Of a DNA stretch of 60,272 nucleotides, positions 11,394-37,602 are shown piece by piece. Origin of the DNA: Candidatus Woesearchaeota archaeon (GTDB lineage Archaea > Nanobdellota > Nanobdellia > Woesearchaeales > DSVV01). A model generated the notes under the pieces. The model was not told the origin of the DNA, searched no databases, and saw only the letters and a list, made by a program, of their open reading frames with translations. The position numbers were made by a program, and so were the translations under genes. The first letter of the stretch is position 1. Every line of letters begins with the position of its first letter. The stretch is from positions 1 to 60,272 of the forward strand of contig JAGVYH010000004.1 in assembly GCA_018303325.1 (NCBI GenBank), given 5' to 3'.

Positions 11394-11504
11394 TAGCCCC
11401 GGACGGATTCGAACCGTCGTCCAAGCCTTTCTTTACTTAGGTTTTAAAGCCAATCATAATTAAGCTCCAAAGGGCTCGATGATGGACCGCTACACTACGG
11501 GGCT
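11394..11504 (-). tRNA. tRNA-Gln(TTG) with 38-nt canonical 37/38 intron (11429-11466)
   Basis: AGCCCCG/CGGGGCT acceptor stem, GAGCC/GGCTT anticodon stem, GGTTCGAATCC T arm. BHB helix CTTT/AAAG with outer GCTTA/TAAGT. Confidence 0.95.
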
Positions 11505-29106: not shown

Positions 29107-29134
29107 AAAAAGAATAAGTAAATTCTAAAAAAAA

Positions 29135-29289
29135 TGCTCCGGCCGGGACTTTCAAATCCGAAGGATTTGCTCTCCTTCAAGATATTTGAACCCGGGTCTT
29201 TGCCTTTCTTTGCCTTTCTTTTCCTTATCAACCTGTCTCTTTAAAGACTCGAGAGGGCAAAATGATGGGCCGGTCTACACTACCGGAGC
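29135..29289 (-). tRNA. tRNA-Glu(CTC) with two introns (37/38: 29206-29249; T-loop 59/60: 29149-29184)
   Basis: GCTCCGG/CCGGAGC acceptor, TTGCC/GGCAA anticodon stem, CCGGG-TTCAAA|T-CCCGG T arm; mature length 75 nt. Confidence 0.9.
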
Positions 29290-29362: not shown

Positions 29363-29534
29363 GAAAAATCCAGCCATGGCGGGCTACGAAGACAGAAATT
29401 TGGAGGCTTTTTCATATTTCTCTTCAAAAGCTGAACAAATTTCTGTCGGAGAGGGCAACCTTTTTGACATTCGACAAATTACTGACGAGGAGAAAAGTTG
29501 CCCGTAAGCCCTGCCATGAATGGCTGGAGGTTTC
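29363..29534 (-). ncRNA. Putative structured RNA/DNA element (three-way junction), copy 1
   Basis: Stems TCCAGCC/GGCTGGA, ATGGC/GCCAT, GGGCT/AGCCC, GGGCAAC/GTTGCCC and GACAGAAATTTG/CAAATTTCTGTC. Core shared with 37483-37602. Confidence 0.6.
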
Positions 29535-29608
29535 AATACTAAGAAATTAAAAAGCCCACATTATAAAGAAGAGATTTATTTATTTTTAGTTATTATCTAT
29601 TTATTTAA

Positions 29609-29884
29609 CTACTCAACATAAAACATCGCATCAGTTATCCATTCGCTTCTGCATTTTGGGCATTTTGTTGGTGTTCTGAATTTTGTCCTTTCTTTGAATA
29701 CAAAATGACACTGTTTGCATTGGCTGGGTATCCTTTTTAGTTTTCTTGGCCGAATAGATACTTGAATGTGCTCTAAATCTTCTTCAATCTCAAAAAGCTC
29801 AACCTTGAAATAGCCTGCTATCTGATACAATGACATTTGTCCATGTTCAAGCATTTGTATAATCTCTTGTCGTCTTGTTGGCAT
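29609..29884 (-). CDS. Archaeal HTH plus Zn-ribbon transcriptional regulator
   Basis: TRRQEIIQML HTH; CKQC...CPKCRSEWI. Confidence 0.85.
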   Translation of the reverse strand: MPTRRQEIIQMLEHGQMSLYQIAGYFKVELFEIEEDLEHIQVSIRPRKLKRIPSQCKQCHFVFKERTKFRTPTKCPKCRSEWITDAMFYVE

Positions 29885-29906
29885 TGCAACCTCAGATTTT
29901 ATGGAA

Positions 29907-30003
29907 TATAGAGAGCTTTGAAAAACTCTTTTTTATGATATTTTTCAAAGCGGTTCTATTAAGGGTTTTGACTATTTGGATAGGTTATTCAAAACCCTCT
30001 ATA
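29907..30003. repeat. Hairpin doublet with TATAGAG/CTCTATA ends
   Basis: GCTTTGAAAAA/TTTTTCAAAGC and AGGGTTTTGA/TCAAAACCCT. Confidence 0.55.
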
Positions 30004-30086
30004 CAATAATTGAATTTCTTTAACTAATGTTCTGTTTCTTAGTATTTTTATTCCGCTCAAAATCCGTTTGTGGAACGCAGTCCCCC

Positions 30087-30134
30087 ATGTAGGCACGGAC
30101 ACTAATTTTTGTATATTCATTTCCGTGCATACAT
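30087..30134. repeat. Family-2 hairpin unit
   Basis: ATGTAGGCACGGA/TCCGTGCATACAT; same stem core as 15737. Confidence 0.7.
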
Positions 30135-30345
30135 ACGTGGACTTTATTTTAAATTTAACAAACTCATATTATAGGTTAAATTTATAATCTTGCAGACTAA
30201 ATACTACATGATATCAATTATTCATTTATTCTGCAATAACTAAATTAATACAGATATTAAAGTCCACAGCTATCTTATGAAAAGTTTAAGTTTTTTCGAA
30301 GAGTTTATTAAAAAATTAAATTTCGAAAAACAAACTAAATCATCA

Positions 30346-30377
30346 TCATGAGATGGGTGGCTTCGCCCAGGAACTAA
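30346..30377 (+). repeat. Short repeat family 3, copy 2
   Basis: TCATGAGATGGGTGGCTTCGCCCAGGAACTAA. Confidence 0.55.
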
Positions 30378-30461
30378 CTAAATACCACTAATTTATTTAT
30401 TACACCTTCTGCTAATAAGAATCAATTAACTTTTTAAAGTTTGTTCTTGTTATTAGTAATT

Positions 30462-32741
30462 ATGTGCGGAATACTTGGAATATTTAATGATAATAAAGCA
30501 AATGAAAAGGAAACAAATGCAATATTTAAGGTAAAGGAAGCTCTGAAAATAATAAAAAACCGCGGCAAAGATATGTATGGTATAGCCAATGAGAATGACT
30601 TTGATTATCAAAAAAAGATAGATCATCTTAAATTACATAGCAAGGAAACGCCTAACGCAATAGCTCATTGTCTGCATAGTCTTGTTTCGTTTGTTCCGCA
30701 GCCATTAATCAGCGAGAACTCAAAAAACAGATTTATTGTTAATTGTGAAATCTATAATTGGGAAGAGCTCAATGAAACCTACAAATTAAATGCAAAAAAC
30801 GACGCAGAAATGCTCTTCAGACTTATTGAAAAAAAAGGAAAAACATCAGTTCAATTAACAAAGATATTAGACGAGCTTGAAGGAGTGTATGCATTTGCAT
30901 TTTGGGATGTAAAAAAAAGAAATGTTGTTCTTGCACGAGATATTATTGGAGTTAAGCCTATATGGTTCTCTCTTTCACAAAAAAATAAAGGAACAGATTC
31001 ATTCGCATTTTCCAGCGAGAAAAAGGCATTGGAACACTTAAATTATAATGAAATTTGCGAGTTAAACCCTCGAAAAATATTAGTGTATAATATTAAAACA
31101 AAAAAAATAACCCAATACAATCAGCCTTTTTTCAGCATAACACCAGAACTAAAAAAGCCGTATGACAAGATAAAAAAAGAATTGGCAGGATTTTTAACAA
31201 ACGCAGTTTCTAAAAGAATCCCTGACAGGGAGTTTGGCATTCTGTTCTCTGGCGGCGTAGATTCAACATTTATCGCATATATCTGCAAATCTCTCGGCTT
31301 GAAACCTGTACTTTACACGTCTGTTCTGGAAACAAAAGGCACAGAACTAAAAATTCCAGAAGATTACTTATGGGCGAGGAAAGCTGCGAGGGAATTAAAG
31401 TTAAAATTAAAGATTAATAAAATAAAATTAGAAGATATAGAAAATTACCTTAAATATATTGTTCCGCTGATCGAAGACAGCAACGTCGTCAAGGTTGGTG
31501 TTGCATTGACATTTTATGGAGCGTGCGAATTAGCGAGAAAGGATAATGTTAAGGTTATTTTCTCTGGCCTCGGAAGCGAGGAGATTTTCGCAGGTTATGA
31601 AAGGCATAAAAAAAGCGCTGAGAGTAGCGCAAATGCCAATAATATTTATGCAAACATCAACAAAGAATGCCTTAGTGGATTATTAAAAATGTATGAGCGC
31701 GATTTGTACAGAGATGATGTAATCACAATGAATAATTCTATTGAGTTAAGGCTGCCTTTTCTCGACAAGAAACTTGTTGAATATGCGCTAACGATTCCTG
31801 CAGAGTATAAATTAAATGTGACACAGAATAATTTAATGGCATCGGACAATTTAATAACACAGAACAAATTAATATTCCGCGAAATTGCAAAAGAGATGGG
31901 CGTTCCTAGCGAATTTGCAGAGCGCAAAAAAAGAGCTGCCCAATACGGCTCAAGCTTTGACAAGGCAATAGAAAAGCTTGCAAAGCAGAATGGATTTAAG
32001 TTAAAGTCTGAATATTTAGACAGGTTTTTGCCGAAAAAAATTATGAAGCTTGGTGTTTTATTCTCGTCAGGAAAGGACTCGAATTATGCACTGCATATCA
32101 TGAAAAATCAAAATTATGATATTGCATGTCTAATAACCATCAAAAGCAAAAATCCAGCAAGCTATATGTTTCACACACCAAACATTAATATTGCAAAATT
32201 ACAGGCAGAGGCATTACAAATACCTTTGATTGAGCAAATAACTGAAGGAGAAAAAGAGGAAGAGCTAAAAGATTTAAAGAAGGCAATAGAAAAAGCAAAA
32301 GAAGAATACAAAATAGAGGGTGTTGTTACAGGCGCAATATTCTCGACATATCAGCGTGACAGAATAGAAAAGATTTGTGACGAATTAGGATTAAAGATAT
32401 TCTCTCCGTTATGGCACATGGAACAGGAAAAAGAAGTAATGGCAATAATTAATAATAGATTTGATGTTATTATTGGCTCGATTGCAGCTGACGGCTTAAG
32501 CAAAGAATGGCTCGGCAAAAAGATTGACAATGAAATGATTGAAAAGTTAAAAACTCTTCATGAAAAGAACAAAATAAATATTGCATTTGAAGGAGGAGAA
32601 GCAGAAACACTAGTTCTCGACGCGCCTTTATACAAGAAAAAGATAAAGATTGAAGAATATGAAATTGTAATGGAAAACGAATATACTGGACGGTTTGTTG
32701 TGAAGAAGGCGAAGTTGGTTGGGAAGTCAATAATGGATTAG
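30462..32741 (+). CDS. Fusion: glutamine-hydrolysing asparagine-synthase-like protein + diphthine--ammonia ligase (Dph6-like)
   Basis: MCGI N-terminal nucleophile, RDIIGVKP, FSGGVDS, SGLGSEEIFAGY and ELRLPFLD; then LFSSGKDS, SYMFH, QRDRIE and EGGEAET. Confidence 0.88.
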   Translation: MCGILGIFNDNKANEKETNAIFKVKEALKIIKNRGKDMYGIANENDFDYQKKIDHLKLHSKETPNAIAHCLHSLVSFVPQPLISENSKNRFIVNCEIYNWEELNETYKLNAKNDAEMLFRLIEKKGKTSVQLTKILDELEGVYAFAFWDVKKRNVVLARDIIGVKPIWFSLSQKNKGTDSFAFSSEKKALEHLNYNEICELNPRKILVYNIKTKKITQYNQPFFSITPELKKPYDKIKKELAGFLTNAVSKRIPDREFGILFSGGVDSTFIAYICKSLGLKPVLYTSVLETKGTELKIPEDYLWARKAARELKLKLKINKIKLEDIENYLKYIVPLIEDSNVVKVGVALTFYGACELARKDNVKVIFSGLGSEEIFAGYERHKKSAESSANANNIYANINKECLSGLLKMYERDLYRDDVITMNNSIELRLPFLDKKLVEYALTIPAEYKLNVTQNNLMASDNLITQNKLIFREIAKEMGVPSEFAERKKRAAQYGSSFDKAIEKLAKQNGFKLKSEYLDRFLPKKIMKLGVLFSSGKDSNYALHIMKNQNYDIACLITIKSKNPASYMFHTPNINIAKLQAEALQIPLIEQITEGEKEEELKDLKKAIEKAKEEYKIEGVVTGAIFSTYQRDRIEKICDELGLKIFSPLWHMEQEKEVMAIINNRFDVIIGSIAADGLSKEWLGKKIDNEMIEKLKTLHEKNKINIAFEGGEAETLVLDAPLYKKKIKIEEYEIVMENEYTGRFVVKKAKLVGKSIMD

Positions 32742-32765
32742 TAGGAAGAGTATAATCTTTTTTCT

Positions 32766-33410
32766 TCAATGATAAGTTATTTCTTCCTGTTGTGTATCTA
32801 AGGGATTATTTCTGTCTATTCTCTCTGACTCTGTTCCTAAATTTAATGCAAACATTAGATTATTTACTGGCTGGAGTGTCAATTCATCTAATCTTGCCTT
32901 TGAAATATCTGTTAATTCTTTTACACACGCAGGTGTCGGCAATGCTTCATAAACTCTATCAAGAATATCTTGCACATCATCTCTGTCATAAAATTCACTG
33001 CTGACTGCAAAAGCAGGAGCAACTTCTGGTCCAGACATACCATGTTTCACCAATACATCCACCTCATTTTTTGGAATAAGAGCATAATTAGATAATTTTA
33101 TTCTTATACTTACTCTTTCTCCCAATCTTCTTTTTTGTAGTTCTGGATCTGAAAACGCAGATTCATAATCTTTCATTGTCTTAAGGTTTCCTTTTAATGA
33201 TTGTTCTGTAATATATATTAGCGTTAACAAGCCAGATTTAATATAAAGATAATTTGGTGATTGCTTAAAATCAGGGGTTGGAGCTAATGTAAGTTGCCTA
33301 ACTAAAGTTATCACTTCCTGTTCTTCATCTAAAATTCGTTTCCTGACTTCTGAAGGAATTTCCAGAACCTTCTGCTCTAATTCACTTAACACATAATCAG
33401 GATTAGCCAT
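32766..33410 (-). CDS. Hypothetical protein
   Basis: 214-aa ORF, no motif recognised. Confidence 0.6.
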   Translation of the reverse strand: MANPDYVLSELEQKVLEIPSEVRKRILDEEQEVITLVRQLTLAPTPDFKQSPNYLYIKSGLLTLIYITEQSLKGNLKTMKDYESAFSDPELQKRRLGERVSIRIKLSNYALIPKNEVDVLVKHGMSGPEVAPAFAVSSEFYDRDDVQDILDRVYEALPTPACVKELTDISKARLDELTLQPVNNLMFALNLGTESERIDRNNPLDTQQEEITYH

Positions 33411-33688
33411 ACATTAACATGACTAAAAGAAGTGTGTGAACCTGAATCAAAAGAATAAGTATCATCTGAAGAAAATATGCTCTGTTGTTTTTCTTGAGCT
33501 GAGATTATTGTTTTTTGTAAATGCGCAACAACCTCGTTATCTGTTGGCTCCCTATATCTCATAAGTAGAAGTACATTTGAAAGAACTATTCCACCACCCA
33601 TATTACCTAACACTGCAGGCATACGTTTCGGTTTACTATAAACTTCATTAGGTATAAGCGAAGTGTAGCCAGGTATATTAATTATCAT
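33386..33688 (-). CDS. Hypothetical protein
   Basis: 100-aa ORF overlapping the next gene by 25 nt. Confidence 0.35.
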   Translation of the reverse strand: MIINIPGYTSLIPNEVYSKPKRMPAVLGNMGGGIVLSNVLLLMRYREPTDNEVVAHLQKTIISAQEKQQSIFSSDDTYSFDSGSHTSFSHVNVWLILIMC

Positions 33689-33861
33689 ATATAATTGCGC
33701 CCCCTATCTGTTCTTCTATAAATACACTTATCTAATAGTATATCATTTGGGGTGAGAATGGTCTATTTTTAAATCTTTTGGGTTGCAAACTGCTGTTTTT
33801 CAATTTGGTTCTGTTTGAAACACTGCATATCATATTCTTTAAGTTTATTGTCGTCTCTTCT

Positions 33862-33881
33862 ACTACAACGCCATTTTATAT
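33862..33881 (+). promoter_or_regulatory. ACTACAAC-N5-TTTATAT promoter motif, copy 1
   Basis: Same motif and spacing at 36796 and 43538. Confidence 0.7.
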
Positions 33882-34033
33882 AGAAAAAACGAGTATATCT
33901 TATTGAAATTTCCGAAATTGAAGATGATTTACTAATAAAACTGTTTATAATTATTTATTCCTAAACAGAAAATCTAAACAGAAAACTTAAACAGAAATTA
34001 ATGGTGTCAGAAATGATTACAGAGGTTTTAATA

Positions 34034-35476
34034 ATGATTGGTTGGTTATTGAAAAAACAAAAAGAAAATGTAACAAGGGAAAAAGTAGAGATTATTAGGG
34101 AAAGATGGGAAGAGAAAGACAGAGAAGTTATTACAGAATTTTCTGAACCTGAAAAACTGACTGCTAAGCTTGAAGATTTGCTTGAACAATCTGTTTCTTT
34201 GGAAACTATTAAACATCTTGTCGAAATAAAAAGTTTAGTTGAGCATGCCTATAGAATAGCTGATGAATATGGTGTTGTTCCAGTAAAAGGCAAAAAAAGC
34301 GCAGCAGGAAAGTTAATTGACGAGAGATTTAATGATATCTACGCAACAATCATGAGTGCTGAACAAAATGTAGTTCATGTAAAAGAGTGTTTGGATAATC
34401 TAATGCGTTCTTATGTTAGTGCATTAGAATTATCTTTTAGAACAGCAAAAGATGATTATAAACATACATCTGGCAGAAAAAAAGAGTTATCCTACAGAGA
34501 AAAAGATTTATCAGACAGAGGAAAAGATTTAGCAGAAAGAGAAAAAGGGGTATCTGACAGAGAATTCGGCATGGAAAATGATTTACACCGAAGAGAAAAA
34601 GGTCTGGCAAGAATGAAAATGGATAATGTTGCCATGCTCTATTCTGAGTTCAGTTTCAGCGTCGGATTTTATGCATTCCCTGAATACAAGCATCTAAGAA
34701 GATTCTGGTTAAACAGGCACGCTAAAAAGGTTCAGAGAGAAGGAACACATAAATGGAAAGCTATTGAGGGAATTGAAGGCACAATAAATGAAACATCTGC
34801 TGCTGCACAATATTGGAACACAAAAAAGCCAGAAAGAACTATTTTTTACGAGGGCAGGGCATTGCCTAATGGCCAAAGAATTTCTGCTGATGTGCGGTTA
34901 TTTGTGACGCCGAATGACGGTTATATTCAAGAGGCAATTGATGACGAGAGAGATTCCAATGGCAGAAACCTTAACGTAAGAAACCCTAACAGATGCAATG
35001 ATGAGATTATGAGAATTTACAGGCATACCAGAAAATATTTTGAGTATGAAGACGATCAGCAAATTGCTGGTGTTCCAGAATACTGGCTCTTTCCATTTGA
35101 ATTAAGGGCAACAGGCAAAGGAGACTGCGATGATTGGGCGAATGAACTAGCGTCTTATCTTATCGGGGCAGGTGTGCCGAATTACAGAGTAAGGGTTGTT
35201 TGCGGCCAAACAAGAAGTGGAGGTGGGCATTCAACTCTTTATGTGTTAGGTGATAACCAAAAAACATGGTATCATTTAAACAGCACAACTGCCCTGCATC
35301 AAATACCAACAGACAGATTAGAATCAATGCCGACGTCAAAAGATGTTTCAGACAAGATGGGTATTGGAGAAGTATGGTTCAGCTATAACAATGAGCATGC
35401 ATGGCATGTATTTGAGGGAAATGCAGAGCAAAGTTTCAGAATGGATAAGAGAAGTGGAGTGATAAAAGGGATATAA
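34034..35476 (+). CDS. Coiled-coil + transglutaminase-like cysteine protease domain protein
   Basis: EYWLFPFELRATGKGDCDDWA, GGGHSTL and WYHLNST (Cys-His-Asn); heptad repeats in the N-terminal half. Confidence 0.75.
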   Translation: MIGWLLKKQKENVTREKVEIIRERWEEKDREVITEFSEPEKLTAKLEDLLEQSVSLETIKHLVEIKSLVEHAYRIADEYGVVPVKGKKSAAGKLIDERFNDIYATIMSAEQNVVHVKECLDNLMRSYVSALELSFRTAKDDYKHTSGRKKELSYREKDLSDRGKDLAEREKGVSDREFGMENDLHRREKGLARMKMDNVAMLYSEFSFSVGFYAFPEYKHLRRFWLNRHAKKVQREGTHKWKAIEGIEGTINETSAAAQYWNTKKPERTIFYEGRALPNGQRISADVRLFVTPNDGYIQEAIDDERDSNGRNLNVRNPNRCNDEIMRIYRHTRKYFEYEDDQQIAGVPEYWLFPFELRATGKGDCDDWANELASYLIGAGVPNYRVRVVCGQTRSGGGHSTLYVLGDNQKTWYHLNSTTALHQIPTDRLESMPTSKDVSDKMGIGEVWFSYNNEHAWHVFEGNAEQSFRMDKRSGVIKGI

Positions 35477-35519
35477 TTCTTTTTCATAAATTTAATATTA
35501 TTTGCACTACCAATATTTA

Positions 35520-36569
35520 CTAATTCAATACTTGGTTTAAAACTTTGTAAACATTTGCTTTGCCTATGTTACAGTCTCCATCTAATTTTGCCTTGAATCT
35601 TTTTGATTCATCATATTCATGCTTACGTAGATAATAATTACGTGCCTTAGTAAATAATGCTCTCCAATAAGTTTCGTCTGCCTCTACCATTTCATCTTCG
35701 TTAACAGCAGTAGAGATCCTACGTCCTTTCCAATCTAAAGCTAAGGTAAACTTAGTTTCCGAACCAGTATAATACGCCTCACGGACATAAGGTCCGCTTC
35801 TCCACTCTTTAAATCTGTCTATAATCATATCAAACAAATGGGACTCTGAAGTAAATACTGATGAAGTATCGCTTGTTATGTGAGCCACTCTAGCAGCATT
35901 ACCTAAACAATCAGCTTTTTTATAATATTCAATTGCTCTTTTGAAATCTTTTCTTTTTTCAGCAATATTTGCAGCCCATCTTGAAGGAACTTCTTTTTCA
36001 CAAGCTTGAACAATTATTTTATAAAATTTATCTGCAGTTTCAGTATCCCCCATCTCATCAGCGGTGTCATAAATCTCAAATAAGCAAGGGCTCCCCGGAC
36101 AATGTTTTTCATAGTCAATAATCGCTTTTTTAAGCGCTAAATCATAAAATCTTTTAGTTCTTCCAGTGTTGCCACTTTCTTTTGATATTCTTGCGCATCT
36201 TAAATAACCATAAAAAGTATCCAAATGCTTATGATAGCTAATTGCTTTATCATAATCTTTGAGTAATAATGCTAAGTCTGCAGCACAAGGAAGGTCACCA
36301 GAATCATGTGAATCTTCACAACTCTTTTCAAAATGTCGCATACCTTCTTCGCAGATTCTTCTTGTTCTATCCATATCACCTAATTCTAGCGCTGTTTCTG
36401 CTGCAAATTTAAATTTTGGAGATTGAAAACCTTGTGGTTTGAGAGAAACATCAATCGCTCTTTCTAACATACCTAATTCTTTAAACATTTGCGCAGCAGA
36501 AATATATTCGCCTTTACTTTCTAAATCAACTGCTGTTTCTAATGTTGGTGCTGGTTTTTGCTTATCCAT
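35520..36569 (-). CDS. TPR-like helical repeat protein
   Basis: Repeats such as AAQMFKELGMLERAI, DYDKAISY and DFKRAIEYYKKA. Confidence 0.65.
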   Translation of the reverse strand: MDKQKPAPTLETAVDLESKGEYISAAQMFKELGMLERAIDVSLKPQGFQSPKFKFAAETALELGDMDRTRRICEEGMRHFEKSCEDSHDSGDLPCAADLALLLKDYDKAISYHKHLDTFYGYLRCARISKESGNTGRTKRFYDLALKKAIIDYEKHCPGSPCLFEIYDTADEMGDTETADKFYKIIVQACEKEVPSRWAANIAEKRKDFKRAIEYYKKADCLGNAARVAHITSDTSSVFTSESHLFDMIIDRFKEWRSGPYVREAYYTGSETKFTLALDWKGRRISTAVNEDEMVEADETYWRALFTKARNYYLRKHEYDESKRFKAKLDGDCNIGKANVYKVLNQVLN

Positions 36570-36795
36570 TTTAGTAATACACTTTTCATAACATGATTTT
36601 TCTTTACAACATAATTATTTTCTGGATTATATCTTTTCACAAAGGAATGAAACTGACTTTATAAATTTTTGTGTCACTATTATATCATAAGTAAAATAAA
36701 TCCGCATTTTTTATTTATACAATACTCCTAATTTGAAATCGAACATATAATAATTTTCGTTTTCTTCCTGTTTTTTCCGAAATGACGTGGCAAAG

Positions 36796-36815
36796 ACTAC
36801 AACTTAAGTTTATAT
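36796..36815 (+). promoter_or_regulatory. ACTACAAC-N5-TTTATAT promoter motif, copy 2
   Basis: ACTACAAC TTAAG TTTATAT. Confidence 0.7.
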
Positions 36816-36886
36816 CTACCATGTGTCTATCTATGTTCTAATTCGAGTGATTTATCATAATAATTTATCCCAGTAATTTATACACA

Positions 36887-36958
36887 GAGCAACTGAGTGC
36901 GGTTAGGGATTACAGTGTGTTACATTGAATGTAAACTGCACTTGTTGCTCAAATCCTA
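36887..36958 (+). other. Structured 5' leader candidate
   Basis: GAGCAAC/GTTGCTC and GAGTGCGGTT/AACTGCACTT stems with G-U pairs on the + strand. Confidence 0.45.
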
Positions 36959-37038
36959 CTCAAAAATATGCAACAAAAATTAAGTTGAGATTGAAATTAC
37001 AATCACAATCAGATTAAAATTATAACGAGGTTAAAACA

Positions 37039-37440
37039 ATGGTGCAATCAACAGCAGACAATTATCGCCGACAAACATCTGGTGATTCCACTCTTGGAAA
37101 TTTTATGAACGGTGTAGGCAAGATTGGCTTAATGACGTTTTTATCTTATGTTACAAGGGCAGGAAGGTGTGTACCTATTCCTTATGATGTTAATGTAACA
37201 AATCCTATTTCTCCAAGTATTGCTATCGGCGCTGGTTTTGTCGCCGGTATCAGCGATACAAATAATCTTGAGGCAAAGGTTGCAGGTGTTTTAGGCGGCC
37301 TTGCATCATTGGCGCCCGATGTTTACGACGCTGCAACAACAGGAGATTTGAAAAGAGCAGGCACAATGGCAGGAACAAAGGTTGCTTTGTACCTTGGCAG
37401 TTATCTTGTGGGATATGTTGCGAATAGATTGTTCAAATAG
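37039..37440 (+). CDS. Small Gly/Ala-rich membrane protein
   Basis: Hydrophobic small-residue helices; GAGG SD-like site upstream. Confidence 0.65.
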   Translation: MVQSTADNYRRQTSGDSTLGNFMNGVGKIGLMTFLSYVTRAGRCVPIPYDVNVTNPISPSIAIGAGFVAGISDTNNLEAKVAGVLGGLASLAPDVYDAATTGDLKRAGTMAGTKVALYLGSYLVGYVANRLFK

Positions 37441-37482
37441 TTAGAAAATCATAAATTTGTGTTAACTGATATGAAGTAGGGG

Positions 37483-37602
37483 TGGAAAAACCCAACAACA
37501 AAAATGGCGGCAGACGGTCAAAATCTGCGGATTTTGCCCTATGCGACACCCCGAAGGGGGCGACCCCCGTCGCATCTGCGCCATTGTTGTTGGGTTTTTC
37601 TA
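37483..37602 (+). ncRNA. Putative structured RNA/DNA element (three-way junction), copy 2
   Basis: GAAAAACCCAACAAC/GTTGTTGGGTTTTTC, ATGGC/GCCAT, GCAGA/TCTGC, CAAAATC/GATTTTG and TGCGAC/GTCGCA. Confidence 0.6.

Follow-up and report, generated by a model that had tools for sequence, protein, structure and literature searches.

Two elements in the window (the whole stretch of DNA that was analysed, 60,272 nucleotides from a Candidatus Woesearchaeota archaeon) raise the question of whether they encode a novel ncRNA, act as processing elements, or are copies of a mobile structured repeat, all three of which had been suggested in a first-pass annotation. Both elements, el1 at 29363–29534 on the minus strand and el2 at 37483–37602 on the plus strand, have the architecture described there, and their coordinates and motifs were confirmed. 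The fold of el1 has an energy of −68.7 kcal/mol, compared to a mean of −38.5 kcal/mol (sd 3.9) for shuffled sequences (z = −7.8), and that of el2 has −63.1 kcal/mol, compared to −35.3 kcal/mol (sd 4.0; z = −7.0); none of 200 shuffles was as stable in either case. The minimum-energy folds of both elements consist of an outer stem, AUGGC paired with GCCAU, one bulged purine, a stem of 4–5 bp, and a three-way junction with two hairpins, and TTTTTC follows 3' of the fold. The parts are as follows:

37483–37602, plus strand: el2, an arm-less (“core-only”) copy, a long hairpin with a three-way junction, a 5' A-run and a 3' T-run.
37484–37501, plus strand: outer stem P1 of el2, 5' strand GGAAAAACCCAACAACAA; the partner strand is 37584–37601.
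37504–37514, plus strand: AUGGC (37504–37508), bulged G (37509) and 5' strand of P2, GCAGA (37510–37514), of el2.
37580–37584 and 37575–37579, plus strand: GCCAU, the partner of AUGGC, and UCUGC, the partner of GCAGA.
37516–37539, plus strand: hairpin P3 of el2, GGUCAAAAUC paired with GAUUUUGCCC, loop UGCG, with a U.C mismatch as the third pair.
37542–37574, plus strand: hairpin P4 of el2, stem UGCGAC/GUCGCA enclosing CCCC-GAA-GGGGG-CGA-CCCCC.
29363–29534, minus strand: el1, a divergent arm-less copy with outer stem CCAGCCA/UGGCUGG.
29517–29513 and 29380–29376, minus strand: AUGGC of el1, followed by a bulged A, and GCCAU.
29511–29507 and 29385–29381, minus strand: P2 of el1, GGGCU paired with AGCCC.
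29445–29505, minus strand: junction blocks of el1 common to el2, ACGGGCAA (29505–29498) and UUGCCCUCUCCGAC (29458–29445).
Within el1, minus strand (predicted fold): a long P3, and a P4 in which a long A+U-rich hairpin replaces the C/G/C hairpin.

The P4 hairpin of el2 has a single G-run that is able to pair with either C-run, and the C-run/G-run/C-run pattern occurs at 14 places in the organism's own genome, 11 of which are copies of the family described below. At 53% G+C, compared to 33% for the genome, el2 is indeed a G+C-rich island. The statement that the elements correspond to no recognised RNA also held: an Rfam 15 scan of the whole window at the gathering threshold returned one tRNA only (11394–11504), relaxed scans of el1 and el2 gave nine matches in total, all far below the gathering score (the best being mir-255 for el1 at 25.5 bits, threshold 50, and a match of 16.9 for el2, threshold 55), and ARAGORN provided no explanation. 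The tRNA-Glu that had been placed just downstream of one element was recognised by eye below el1, at about 29134–29289 on the minus strand, with two introns; it was reported by neither ARAGORN nor the Rfam scan. The proximity of el1 to this gene is incidental.

The two elements had been called homologous, which is a weak point of the description. Covariance model R1 scores el2 at 123 bits (E = 8e-29). Built from el2-type copies, this model did not score el1 when the whole window was searched with filters off at E ≤ 10, and neither did model R2, also built from el2-type copies, over 10 kb at E ≤ 1. Because the el2-type models do not score el1, the homology rests on common blocks and on a bridging subfamily. 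When el1 and el2 were aligned by eye, the blocks AUGGC-R-stem-ACGGNCAA and UUGCCCUNUNCGACA were found at equivalent structural places in both. The bridging subfamily combines the outer stem of el1 (UCCAGCCA..AUGGC / GCCAUGGCUGGA) with el2-type hairpins and has model scores of 50–100 bits. el1 has a paralog at C47:1329–1488 and a truncated one at C48:20880–20952 in genome G000, and relatives (C117 and C38) in the same-genus genome G001.

Many more copies exist. In the organism's own genome, the covariance model gave 26 matches at E ≤ 1, eight of which were opposite-strand echoes, leaving 18 loci on the modelled strand, and nhmmer yielded three extra el1-type loci. Copies are 85–207 nt long and the conserved module measures 85–170 nt. 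Among 41 related genomes, the model matched in 20, with 0 to 79 matches per genome (the highest counts were 79, 55, 38, 37 and 25); the 21 genomes with no match include same-family genomes of 95–100% completeness. The hosts are tiny groundwater archaea, and the repeat is scattered patchily among them. Fifteen of 80 public loci found by pattern were true model hits, 13 of them in MAGs titled Woesearchaeota, Nanoarchaeota or Nanoarchaeia and two titled Methanosarcinales, and none of 27 pattern matches on viral contigs was a true model hit, this search extending only as far as its exact pattern. In four metagenome runs from groundwater or soil (DNA contigs only), the core had a summed contig depth of 11–365, compared to about 2–12 on the flanks. 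The metagenome contigs break at the core, with a depth roughly 1 to 30 times that of the flanking genes. None of the runs listed as containing the sequence is an RNA run, and the one RNA run of a shared sample contained next to none of the sequence words.

The stems had been described as covarying, and the larger family bears this out. On 69 distinct copies, comprising 40 pairs and 2460 cells, compensatory changes in which both sides were altered occurred in 38 of the 40 pairs, and 92.6% of the cells were paired, compared to 44–48% when the partner was slid. None of 500 shuffles matched any of the covariation measures. Both-sided changes were seen in eight of nine pairs in helix 2 and in all ten pairs in helix 3. 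Across the family, P1 varies by whole triplets (AAC/GTT, CAC/GTG, GAT/ATC, CCAGCC/GGCTGG), and the mismatched position in P3 is U.C, C.U, C.A or a pair. The helices covary freely, and the junction-proximal bases (GACGG, CCUA, CG) are conserved. Six or more taxonomic families share the core fold, including compensatory changes in the internal hairpins. There are few wobble pairs (33 G.U cells versus 87 A.C cells of 2460). In all copies, on either strand, the stem is preceded by an A-run and followed by a T-run.

(A coding role was considered and rejected. Some copies have an open reading frame from the AUG of AUGGC, but start and frame are not kept: no more than about half of the copies have AUG at this place, and the differences in hairpin length are not multiples of three.)

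The neighbours of el1 and those of el2 are co-oriented, and both elements lie in the sense direction, as had been noted. Across the family, copies are intergenic and occur in either orientation without bias: of the 77 copies that have a neighbour on each side, 27 are flanked by divergent and 17 by convergent genes, while 15 are tandem-sense and 18 tandem-antisense. No preferred neighbour gene was found in a Pfam check of ten neighbours in genomes with one or two copies and the eight window neighbours; the adjoining genes are unrelated housekeeping genes. One tyrosine recombinase gene adjoins one copy. Copies occur on different contigs, either singly or as tail-to-tail pairs, and all 13 adjacent pairs are tail-to-tail, with two members that have different outer stems.

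Filled and empty sites were compared between closely related genomes. At the el2 site (compared by eye), some 200 nt in the window correspond to some 27 nt in G001, and the genes flanking the empty site are 86–90% identical to those in the window. Five copies in G001 are located at sites where G000 has 10–28 nt, and two copies in G019 are absent from the syntenic sites in G012. One filled site has TGTTAATTT on both sides, and the matching empty site holds this 9-mer once. Some of the differences between filled and empty sites could be deletions; the direction is fixed only where a duplication flanks the copy. Between species of a single genus, the family is a marker of recent genome change.

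About half of the copies in this genus form the centre of a MITE of 183–203 bp with GGCTTCATCC terminal inverted repeats. Type A and type B copies have (G)GCTTCATCCAAAAATT at both ends. A 9-bp target duplication was perfect in 16 of 32 inverted-repeat-bounded elements and matched in at least eight of the nine positions in 20, compared to none of the 32 reaching 8/9 at control offsets of 0, 2 and 3. The family also includes deletion derivatives and nested insertions.

el1, el2 and the other arm-less copies do not have the GGCTTCATCC arms, and the hairpin stem is their only inverted repeat. The flanks of el2 are A+T-rich and any duplication is indistinct, and el1 has no clear target duplication. 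A MITE-type movement of el1 and el2 themselves is therefore at most putative. (The stems of arm-less copies carry bulges.) Core and MITE ends are also decoupled between genomes: G019, G012, G013, G028, G023 and G032 have 18–79 core hits and 0–1 end motifs, and G009 (34 end motifs) and G014 (12 end motifs) have two core hits each. Consequently, in most genomes the distribution of the core cannot be accounted for by the MITE. Three or more kinds of flank accompany this interior, which is also present without recognisable ends.

Searches for a partner element gave the following results. Loose patterns for solo end fragments in G000 returned noise only. No pair of MITE ends 0.4–5 kb apart around a transposase was present in G000, and no autonomous element was found in 12 regions around unpaired ends of G009, G014 and G006. 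Two DDE families (DDE_Tnp_1 and Transposase_mut) plus Y1_Tnp were followed across the 41 genomes. Y1_Tnp (PF01797) does not track the core, being present in eight of 20 core-positive and seven of 21 core-negative genomes. DDE_Tnp_1 tracks neither the element nor the ends, since it occurs in 18 of the 41 genomes and in none of G009, G019 and G012, and Transposase_mut was found in none of the 41.

We conclude that el1 and el2 probably belong to a mobile, non-coding repeat family that is dispersed in the genomes of Woesearchaeota-type DPANN archaea, and are not genes for housekeeping RNAs, and we classify the family as a new MITE-like structured repeat family. Among the original suggestions, the mobile structured repeat is supported because the family is multi-copy and patchy, has filled and empty sites, and is partly bounded by inverted repeats and 9-bp duplications; the copy number and patchiness rule out a housekeeping or processing RNA that is present once. 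We find no Rfam match for the two elements, many further homologs and strong covariation, the three points on which the first-pass annotation had let its reading depend.

The module would fold, as single-stranded DNA or RNA, into a long stem ending in a three-way junction. The MITE ends and 9-bp duplications are characteristic of cut-and-paste movement, catalysed by a DDE-type transposase that would be supplied in trans. Several vehicles may carry the module: the MITE, a unit of about 170–190 nt in G019 that has a small hairpin upstream, and the tail-to-tail heterodimers. The arm-less el1 and el2 could be relics with decayed arms, or copies moved by ends that we do not recognise. The fold would be kept for an action in cis on the element, such as juxtaposition of the ends or recognition as a folded strand, and probably not for any host need. 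Given the A-run and T-run of either strand, archaeal transcription is likely to be stopped from both sides as a by-product, and such a bidirectional stop would make intergenic insertions tolerable.

In a MITE, the conserved part would be expected at the ends, whereas here the interior is conserved. A conserved interior with compensatory changes in the hairpins is the pattern to be expected of a functional RNA or of a single strand that folds. The core might be a functional module in its own right, be it an RNA encoded by the element or an active folded single strand, that spreads through Woesearchaeota on any available DNA vehicle, with the vehicles being secondary and selection acting on the fold. 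This is argued for by a fold that is conserved across at least six families and decoupled from recognisable ends, and by the recurrent, obligate tail-to-tail heterodimers; we regard it as possible, though doubtful.

According to another reading, which we consider unlikely, the core is a putative small-RNA gene that rides on mobile DNA and acts in trans. Its transcription would depend on a TATA-like, A+T-rich box some 25 nt upstream and end at the T-run, the transcript would fold into the three-way junction, and the RNA might, for example, regulate or guide the element's own transposase or form a protein-bound particle. The strong covariation of the internal hairpins, the fixed junction bases and the conservation of the core independently of its DNA vehicle are consistent with such a gene, as are the loops, which, read on the modelled strand, are for the most part GNA or GNRA-like in P4 and C(UUCG)G in some P3 hairpins. 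In addition, the left arm of type B copies contains a conserved TTTATATT-type box, and TTTTTAYTATG is located about 25 nt ahead of the minimal copies in G019. However, TATA-like strings are ubiquitous at 33% G+C, and the upstream boxes were seen without a control. While all copies have a 3' T-run, the arrangement of A-run, stem and T-run is symmetric, making either strand terminator-like. The scarcity of wobble pairs is unusual for a selected RNA helix, and the number of copies ranges from 0 to 79 among close relatives.

The element might instead be a folded single-strand DNA site for a structure-specific recombinase or HUH enzyme, with the three-way junction as the recognition structure, on the model of REP/REPIN sequences with RAYT, integron attC sites or IS200/IS605 ends. 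The structure is better conserved than the sequence, wobble pairs are few, the loops are of the d(C-GNA-G) type, and the strictly tail-to-tail pairs, with their differing outer stems, resemble the way in which REP types alternate in BIMEs and REPs are paired in REPINs. Nevertheless, we judge this reading to be highly improbable. The IS200/RAYT-type enzyme Y1_Tnp is about as frequent in genomes without the element as in those with it, the copies are dispersed singly or in pairs and not in cassette arrays, and the element is 3–5 times the length of a REP. Moreover, copies with defined ends have a fixed 9-bp duplication, and HUH and tyrosine enzymes are not known to make one.

That the elements serve the host in cis, as a terminator, mRNA stabiliser or processing signal for an adjoining gene or tRNA, was suggested by the window itself, where both copies share the direction of their co-oriented neighbours and have a terminal TTTTTC, one of them just upstream of tRNA-Glu, but this can hardly be so in view of the lack of orientation preference in the 77 copies (27 of them between divergent genes), the absence of el2 from the conserved site in G001, and the 21 of 41 relatives that have no copy. 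The unbiased orientation contradicts a cis-regulatory or terminator role as the primary function; such a role may exist as a side effect.

The genomes of DPANN archaea are small and generally regarded as poor in spare DNA. Some of them nevertheless hold dozens of copies of this one structured repeat, which breaks assemblies and in any single window resembles a novel ncRNA; the covariance model allows annotators to mask it. The oddity of the family is that the conserved unit is an interior fold and not a pair of transposon ends. If the fold is an RNA or a recognition structure, it would provide a handle on the movement of mobile DNA in organisms that have not yet been grown alone, and if the core is a self-standing module, it would represent a new class of transposon-associated structured RNA or DNA in DPANN archaea.

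Hgc RNAs were discovered as G+C-rich islands in A+T-rich archaeal DNA. el2 is a structured island of this kind; unlike the Rfam RNAs (5S, tRNA, SRP, RNase P, self-cleaving ribozymes and Hgc), el1 and el2 match nothing at the gathering score. Integron attC sites form tandem cassette arrays in one orientation, whereas the copies here are single or tail-to-tail, next to unrelated genes and in either orientation. REP/REPIN sequences are likewise structured extragenic palindromes, often in inverted pairs of two subtypes, but REPs are simple hairpins of 20–40 nt, and their association with RAYT was not found here. The family has much in common with MITEs: it is small (about 100–200 bp), non-coding, multi-copy and intergenic, can fold into a long hairpin and has deletion derivatives and nested insertions, and a part of it (not el1, el2 or the other arm-less copies) has terminal inverted repeats and a target-site duplication of fixed length, 9 bp; the family differs in that its interior is conserved instead of its ends, and in that no autonomous partner was found. 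A 2024 survey reports that one of the archaeal genomes with the highest MITE density is that of a Woesearchaea (PMC11602168). Our literature search found no description of the hairpin repeat, although the supplementary tables of that survey may list members (PMC11602168). Like the family, ERIC, BOX and Correia-type repeats are imperfect palindromes found in either orientation and in copy numbers that differ greatly among relatives. These are bacterial intergenic repeats of about 100–150 bp, with size variants that result from internal insertions, and their mobility is only partly understood. They belong to another domain of life and have no known sequence relation to the Woesearchaeota repeat, which is set apart from them by its branched three-way core and invariant junction bases.

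The two folded copies under study, and two tRNA genes of the window, are as follows.

29363-29534, minus strand: el1, the first folded copy
37483-37602, plus strand: el2, the second folded copy
~29134-29289, minus strand: tRNA-Glu-like gene with two introns, identified by eye, below el1
11394-11504, minus strand: tRNA with a 41-nt intron (Rfam, 44.6 bits)

Both stretches had the coordinates, motifs and architecture described in the first-pass annotation. Their predicted folds were alike, with an outer stem, AUGGC/GCCAU, one bulged purine and a stem of 4-5 bp, ending in a three-way junction bearing two hairpins (P3 and P4), and TTTTTC followed directly after each. The predicted minimum was -68.7 kcal/mol for el1 (z -7.8) and -63.1 kcal/mol for el2 (z -7.0); 0/200 dinucleotide shuffles were as stable in either case. 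The G+C-rich island was evident for el2 (53% vs 33% for the genome). At the gathering score, the tRNA at 11394-11504 was the sole Rfam match in the window, and relaxed scans of el1 and el2 yielded 6 and 3 matches, respectively, all far under their thresholds, in agreement with the first-pass annotation, which had not recognised tRNA, 5S, SRP or a known ribozyme. ARAGORN reported no tRNA in the window, missing both genes, and the Rfam tRNA model did not report the tRNA-Glu. The tRNA-Glu introns are located after the anticodon and in the T-loop (~36 nt); the latter holds a 17-nt hairpin, CAAATCCTTCGGATTTG, that recurs unchanged as P3 in two repeat copies of the source genome (G000), on contigs C12 and C68.

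The view of el1 and el2 as a pair of elements gave way to that of a multi-copy family that includes el2 and probably el1. In the 1.97-Mb source genome (78 contigs), in which the window forms contig C73, nhmmer found 11 further loci with el2 as the query and 2 with el1. In an alignment of ten el2-type copies, 24/40 predicted pairs were altered on both sides, and the covariance model built from these copies (R1) gave 26 matches in the source genome at E ≤ 1: 18 loci on the modelled strand and 8 weak opposite-strand echoes. R1 found matches, in very uneven numbers, in 20 of 41 related genomes, which are non-independent samples scored with rough E-values, and none in the other 21, several of them same-family and 95-100% complete. 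Public genomes scanned with an exact pattern gave 80 listed loci, including 15 genuine model matches; 13 of these were titled Woesearchaeota, Nanoarchaeota or Nanoarchaeia, which fits the DPANN organism guessed earlier, and two were titled Methanosarcinales MAGs. The remaining loci were chance matches in bacteria, and none of 27 pattern matches in viral sequences was genuine by the model. Metagenome depth over the core, a sum across contigs of many organisms, shows only that the core is abundant in metagenomes and breaks assemblies.

The family is mobile, as the mobile-repeat reading in the first-pass annotation had it: orthologous sites are filled or empty between relatives, in comparisons made without an outgroup that do not set the direction (gain vs loss). 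The neighbouring genes of el2 have counterparts of 86-90% identity in the same-genus genome G001, where the interval between them is ~27 nt vs ~200 nt in the window. When 15 G001 loci with copies were compared with the source genome by local blastn, five had clean flanks around a 10-28 nt gap in G000. Two arm-less G019 copies (cores without terminal inverted repeats) are absent from the syntenic G012 sites, and the G001 tRNA-Glu locus is without el1 and the accompanying 91-aa PF0610-like gene. At G000:C15:12166-12380, four unrelated short perfect hairpins cluster where G001 has a repeat copy; from these sequences, different hairpin elements seem to reuse the same intergenic sites.

MITE units were sought as the end motif in inverted orientation. 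Two types have the three-way-junction hairpin at their centre:

Type A, 194-203 nt: G000 contigs C25 (61477-61672), C33, C37 and C38; also in G001
Type B, 183-185 nt: G000 contigs C41, C52, C55, C56 and C62; also in G001

A filled site on G001 contig C27 reads TGTTAATTT, then the element from GGCTTCATCC to GGATGAAGCC, then TGTTAATTT again, and its empty counterpart on G000 contig C65 has a single TGTTAATTT. Among 32 elements drawn from G000, G001, G009, G014, G006 and G011, the 9 nt flanking the ends were identical in 16 and agreed at ≥8 positions in 20; control offsets of 0, 2 and 3 gave 0/32 elements at 8/9. From what is established for insertion sequences, such a duplication marks transposition in which a DDE-type enzyme makes staggered cuts. 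Types A and B bear this signature and are textbook MITEs. A 112-nt unit (G000:C59:10908-11019) has the ends and a perfect duplication with no core. In G009, a 334-nt MITE with GGCTTCATCC ends (L224, C9:90282-90675) carries a second palindromic element, with CTTTAAAC on both flanks, nested at its apex; the same MITE occurs at locus L225 in a form shortened to 102 nt by deletion.

Neither the source genome nor the 12 regions inspected around unpaired ends had a transposase between a pair of ends. Y1_Tnp did not track the core (8/20 core-positive vs 7/21 core-negative genomes), DDE_Tnp_1 occurred in 18/41 genomes and in none of G009, G019 and G012, and Transposase_mut in 0/41; since the genomes are 68-100% complete, absence of a transposase gene is weak evidence. 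An insertion sequence with the end TGGAGTGAACCCCTAGAAG was found at six contig ends in G000 (C12:1-118 and C68:1-159, with C7, C16, C20, C28 and C64 also listed). It interrupts P3 of one repeat copy, where a 3-bp duplication (AAT) is seen.

The core and the ends proved separable. The end motif (≤1 mismatch) was present in 14/41 genomes, with the following numbers.

End motifs and R1 core matches per genome
G009: 34 end motifs; 2 core matches
G000: 20 end motifs; 18 core loci
G001 (same genus): 16 end motifs; 16 core matches
G014: 12 end motifs; 2 core matches
G006: 5 end motifs; 11 core matches
G019, G012, G013, G028 (another family), G023 and G032: 0-1 end motifs each; 79, 55, 38, 37, 25 and 18 core matches, respectively

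In G009, G014 and G006, elements of 164 nt likewise have these ends, with 9-bp duplications, around a different interior, which retains a P4-like C-run/GNA/G-run/CAA/C-run hairpin. Upstream of the G019 minimal copies lies a conserved module made of a small G+C hairpin that covaries and an A+T-rich spacer after it. This hairpin, TTTTTTAAC(A/T)GG-stem-loop-stem (stems GCC/GGC, GTCC/GGAC and GCCC/GGGC), comes after the stop codon that closes the preceding gene, and many minimal copies follow it ~55-65 nt later (e.g., L184:14990-15075 and L197:13480-13550); one G012 site is without both core and module. Adjacent copies were tail-to-tail in 13/13 pairs, with outer stems that differed between the two members in 6/6 pairs inspected. 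From the decoupled counts, the G019 module and these pairs, the core probably rides on several vehicles. No ends could be recognised for el1, el2 and at least five other copies in the source genome (C5, both on C46, C25:125887 and C12); such arm-less copies would be relics, or may have moved via unrecognised ends. In G019, solo 3'-end fragments (GGCCAATGTTGTT..TTT) occur directly after full copies (e.g., L186:5707-5735 and L184:15176-15205) and solo 5'-end fragments precede some, which suggests stacked or replaced insertions.

Pairing was counted on 70 model matches (69 distinct) from 20 G019 regions and from the single best locus in each of 19 other genomes. Standard pairs filled 92.6% of 2460 cells vs 44-48% with the partner slid by 1-3 columns, and 0/500 shuffles reached any of the pairing measures; the alignment was model-fitted, which favours structure, but the margin is large all the same. 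The covariation claimed earlier was borne out, with 38/40 pairs altered on both sides across the 69 distinct copies. P4 is a 7-bp stem, in many copies with a tandem U.C/C.U mismatch (ACUCGGC/GCCUCGY). Larger copies contain, inside P4, a C-run, GNA or GNRA, a G-run, CAA and a C-run, and the G-run is predicted to be able to pair with either C-run; the G019 minimal class (~100 nt) has a 3-bp hairpin in place of the P4 apex. The outer stem varies by whole triplets (AAC/GTT, CAC/GTG, GAT/ATC), and the invariant bases (GACGG, CCUA and CG) are adjacent to the junction. The main rival to a MITE-like repeat is that the core may be an RNA made from the element. This would account better for the conservation of the interior, but would have to accommodate the scarcity of wobble pairs (33 G.U vs 87 A.C cells, ~24 of the latter from one conserved C.A position).

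Neither R1, run unfiltered across the entire window (E ≤ 10), nor R2, a model built from the 70 matches with similarly rough E-values and run over 10 kb (E ≤ 1), matched el1. el1 and el2 share AUGGC-R-stem-(U)ACGGNCAA and UUGCCCUNUNCGACA at equivalent structural places, and the el1 outer stem, UCCAGCCA...AUGGC / GCCAUGGCUGGA, is that of a bridging subfamily in G012, G033, G006 and G001 with ordinary P3 and P4 and model scores of 50-100 bits. On this indirect evidence, we accept the proposed homology and consider el1 a probable divergent member with long hairpins, less certain than el2.

The family is non-coding and confined to intergenic sites, where nearly all examined copies lay. With genes crudely approximated by ORFs of ≥80 aa, 86 copies were examined, 9 of them at a locus edge; the 77 with two neighbours lay between divergent (27), convergent (17), tandem sense (15) and tandem antisense (18) genes. 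The neighbours were unrelated housekeeping genes. Together with these orientations, this rules out that the element serves primarily as a 3'-UTR, leader or processing signal. That el1 and el2 lie in sense, and that a tRNA-Glu sits beside el1, had been pointed out in the first-pass annotation; both were observed, but are incidental, since there is no tie to genes across copies. A different multi-copy repeat family occupies ~30003-30390 of the window, between the PF0610-like gene and a diphthamide/asparagine synthase fusion gene, and 40-230 nt pieces of it match dozens of places in G001. At G000:C5:12750-13200, a repeat copy flanked by a ~55-nt direct repeat follows the 3' end of a tRNA, and this end recurs ~130 nt downstream. 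The arrangement looks like the scar of integration at the tRNA.

A MITE-like structured repeat family is the best-supported reading. The fold would act in cis for the element, and two-way transcription termination or insulation is a plausible by-product of the A-run, stem, T-run design. We found no description of this element in the literature; in a 2024 survey (PMC11602168), whose supplements may list members, a Woesearchaea genome ranks with the most MITE-dense archaea. The element is a repeat of this ordinary, MITE-like kind, set apart by an unusual feature, a branched conserved core that is independent of its vehicle.
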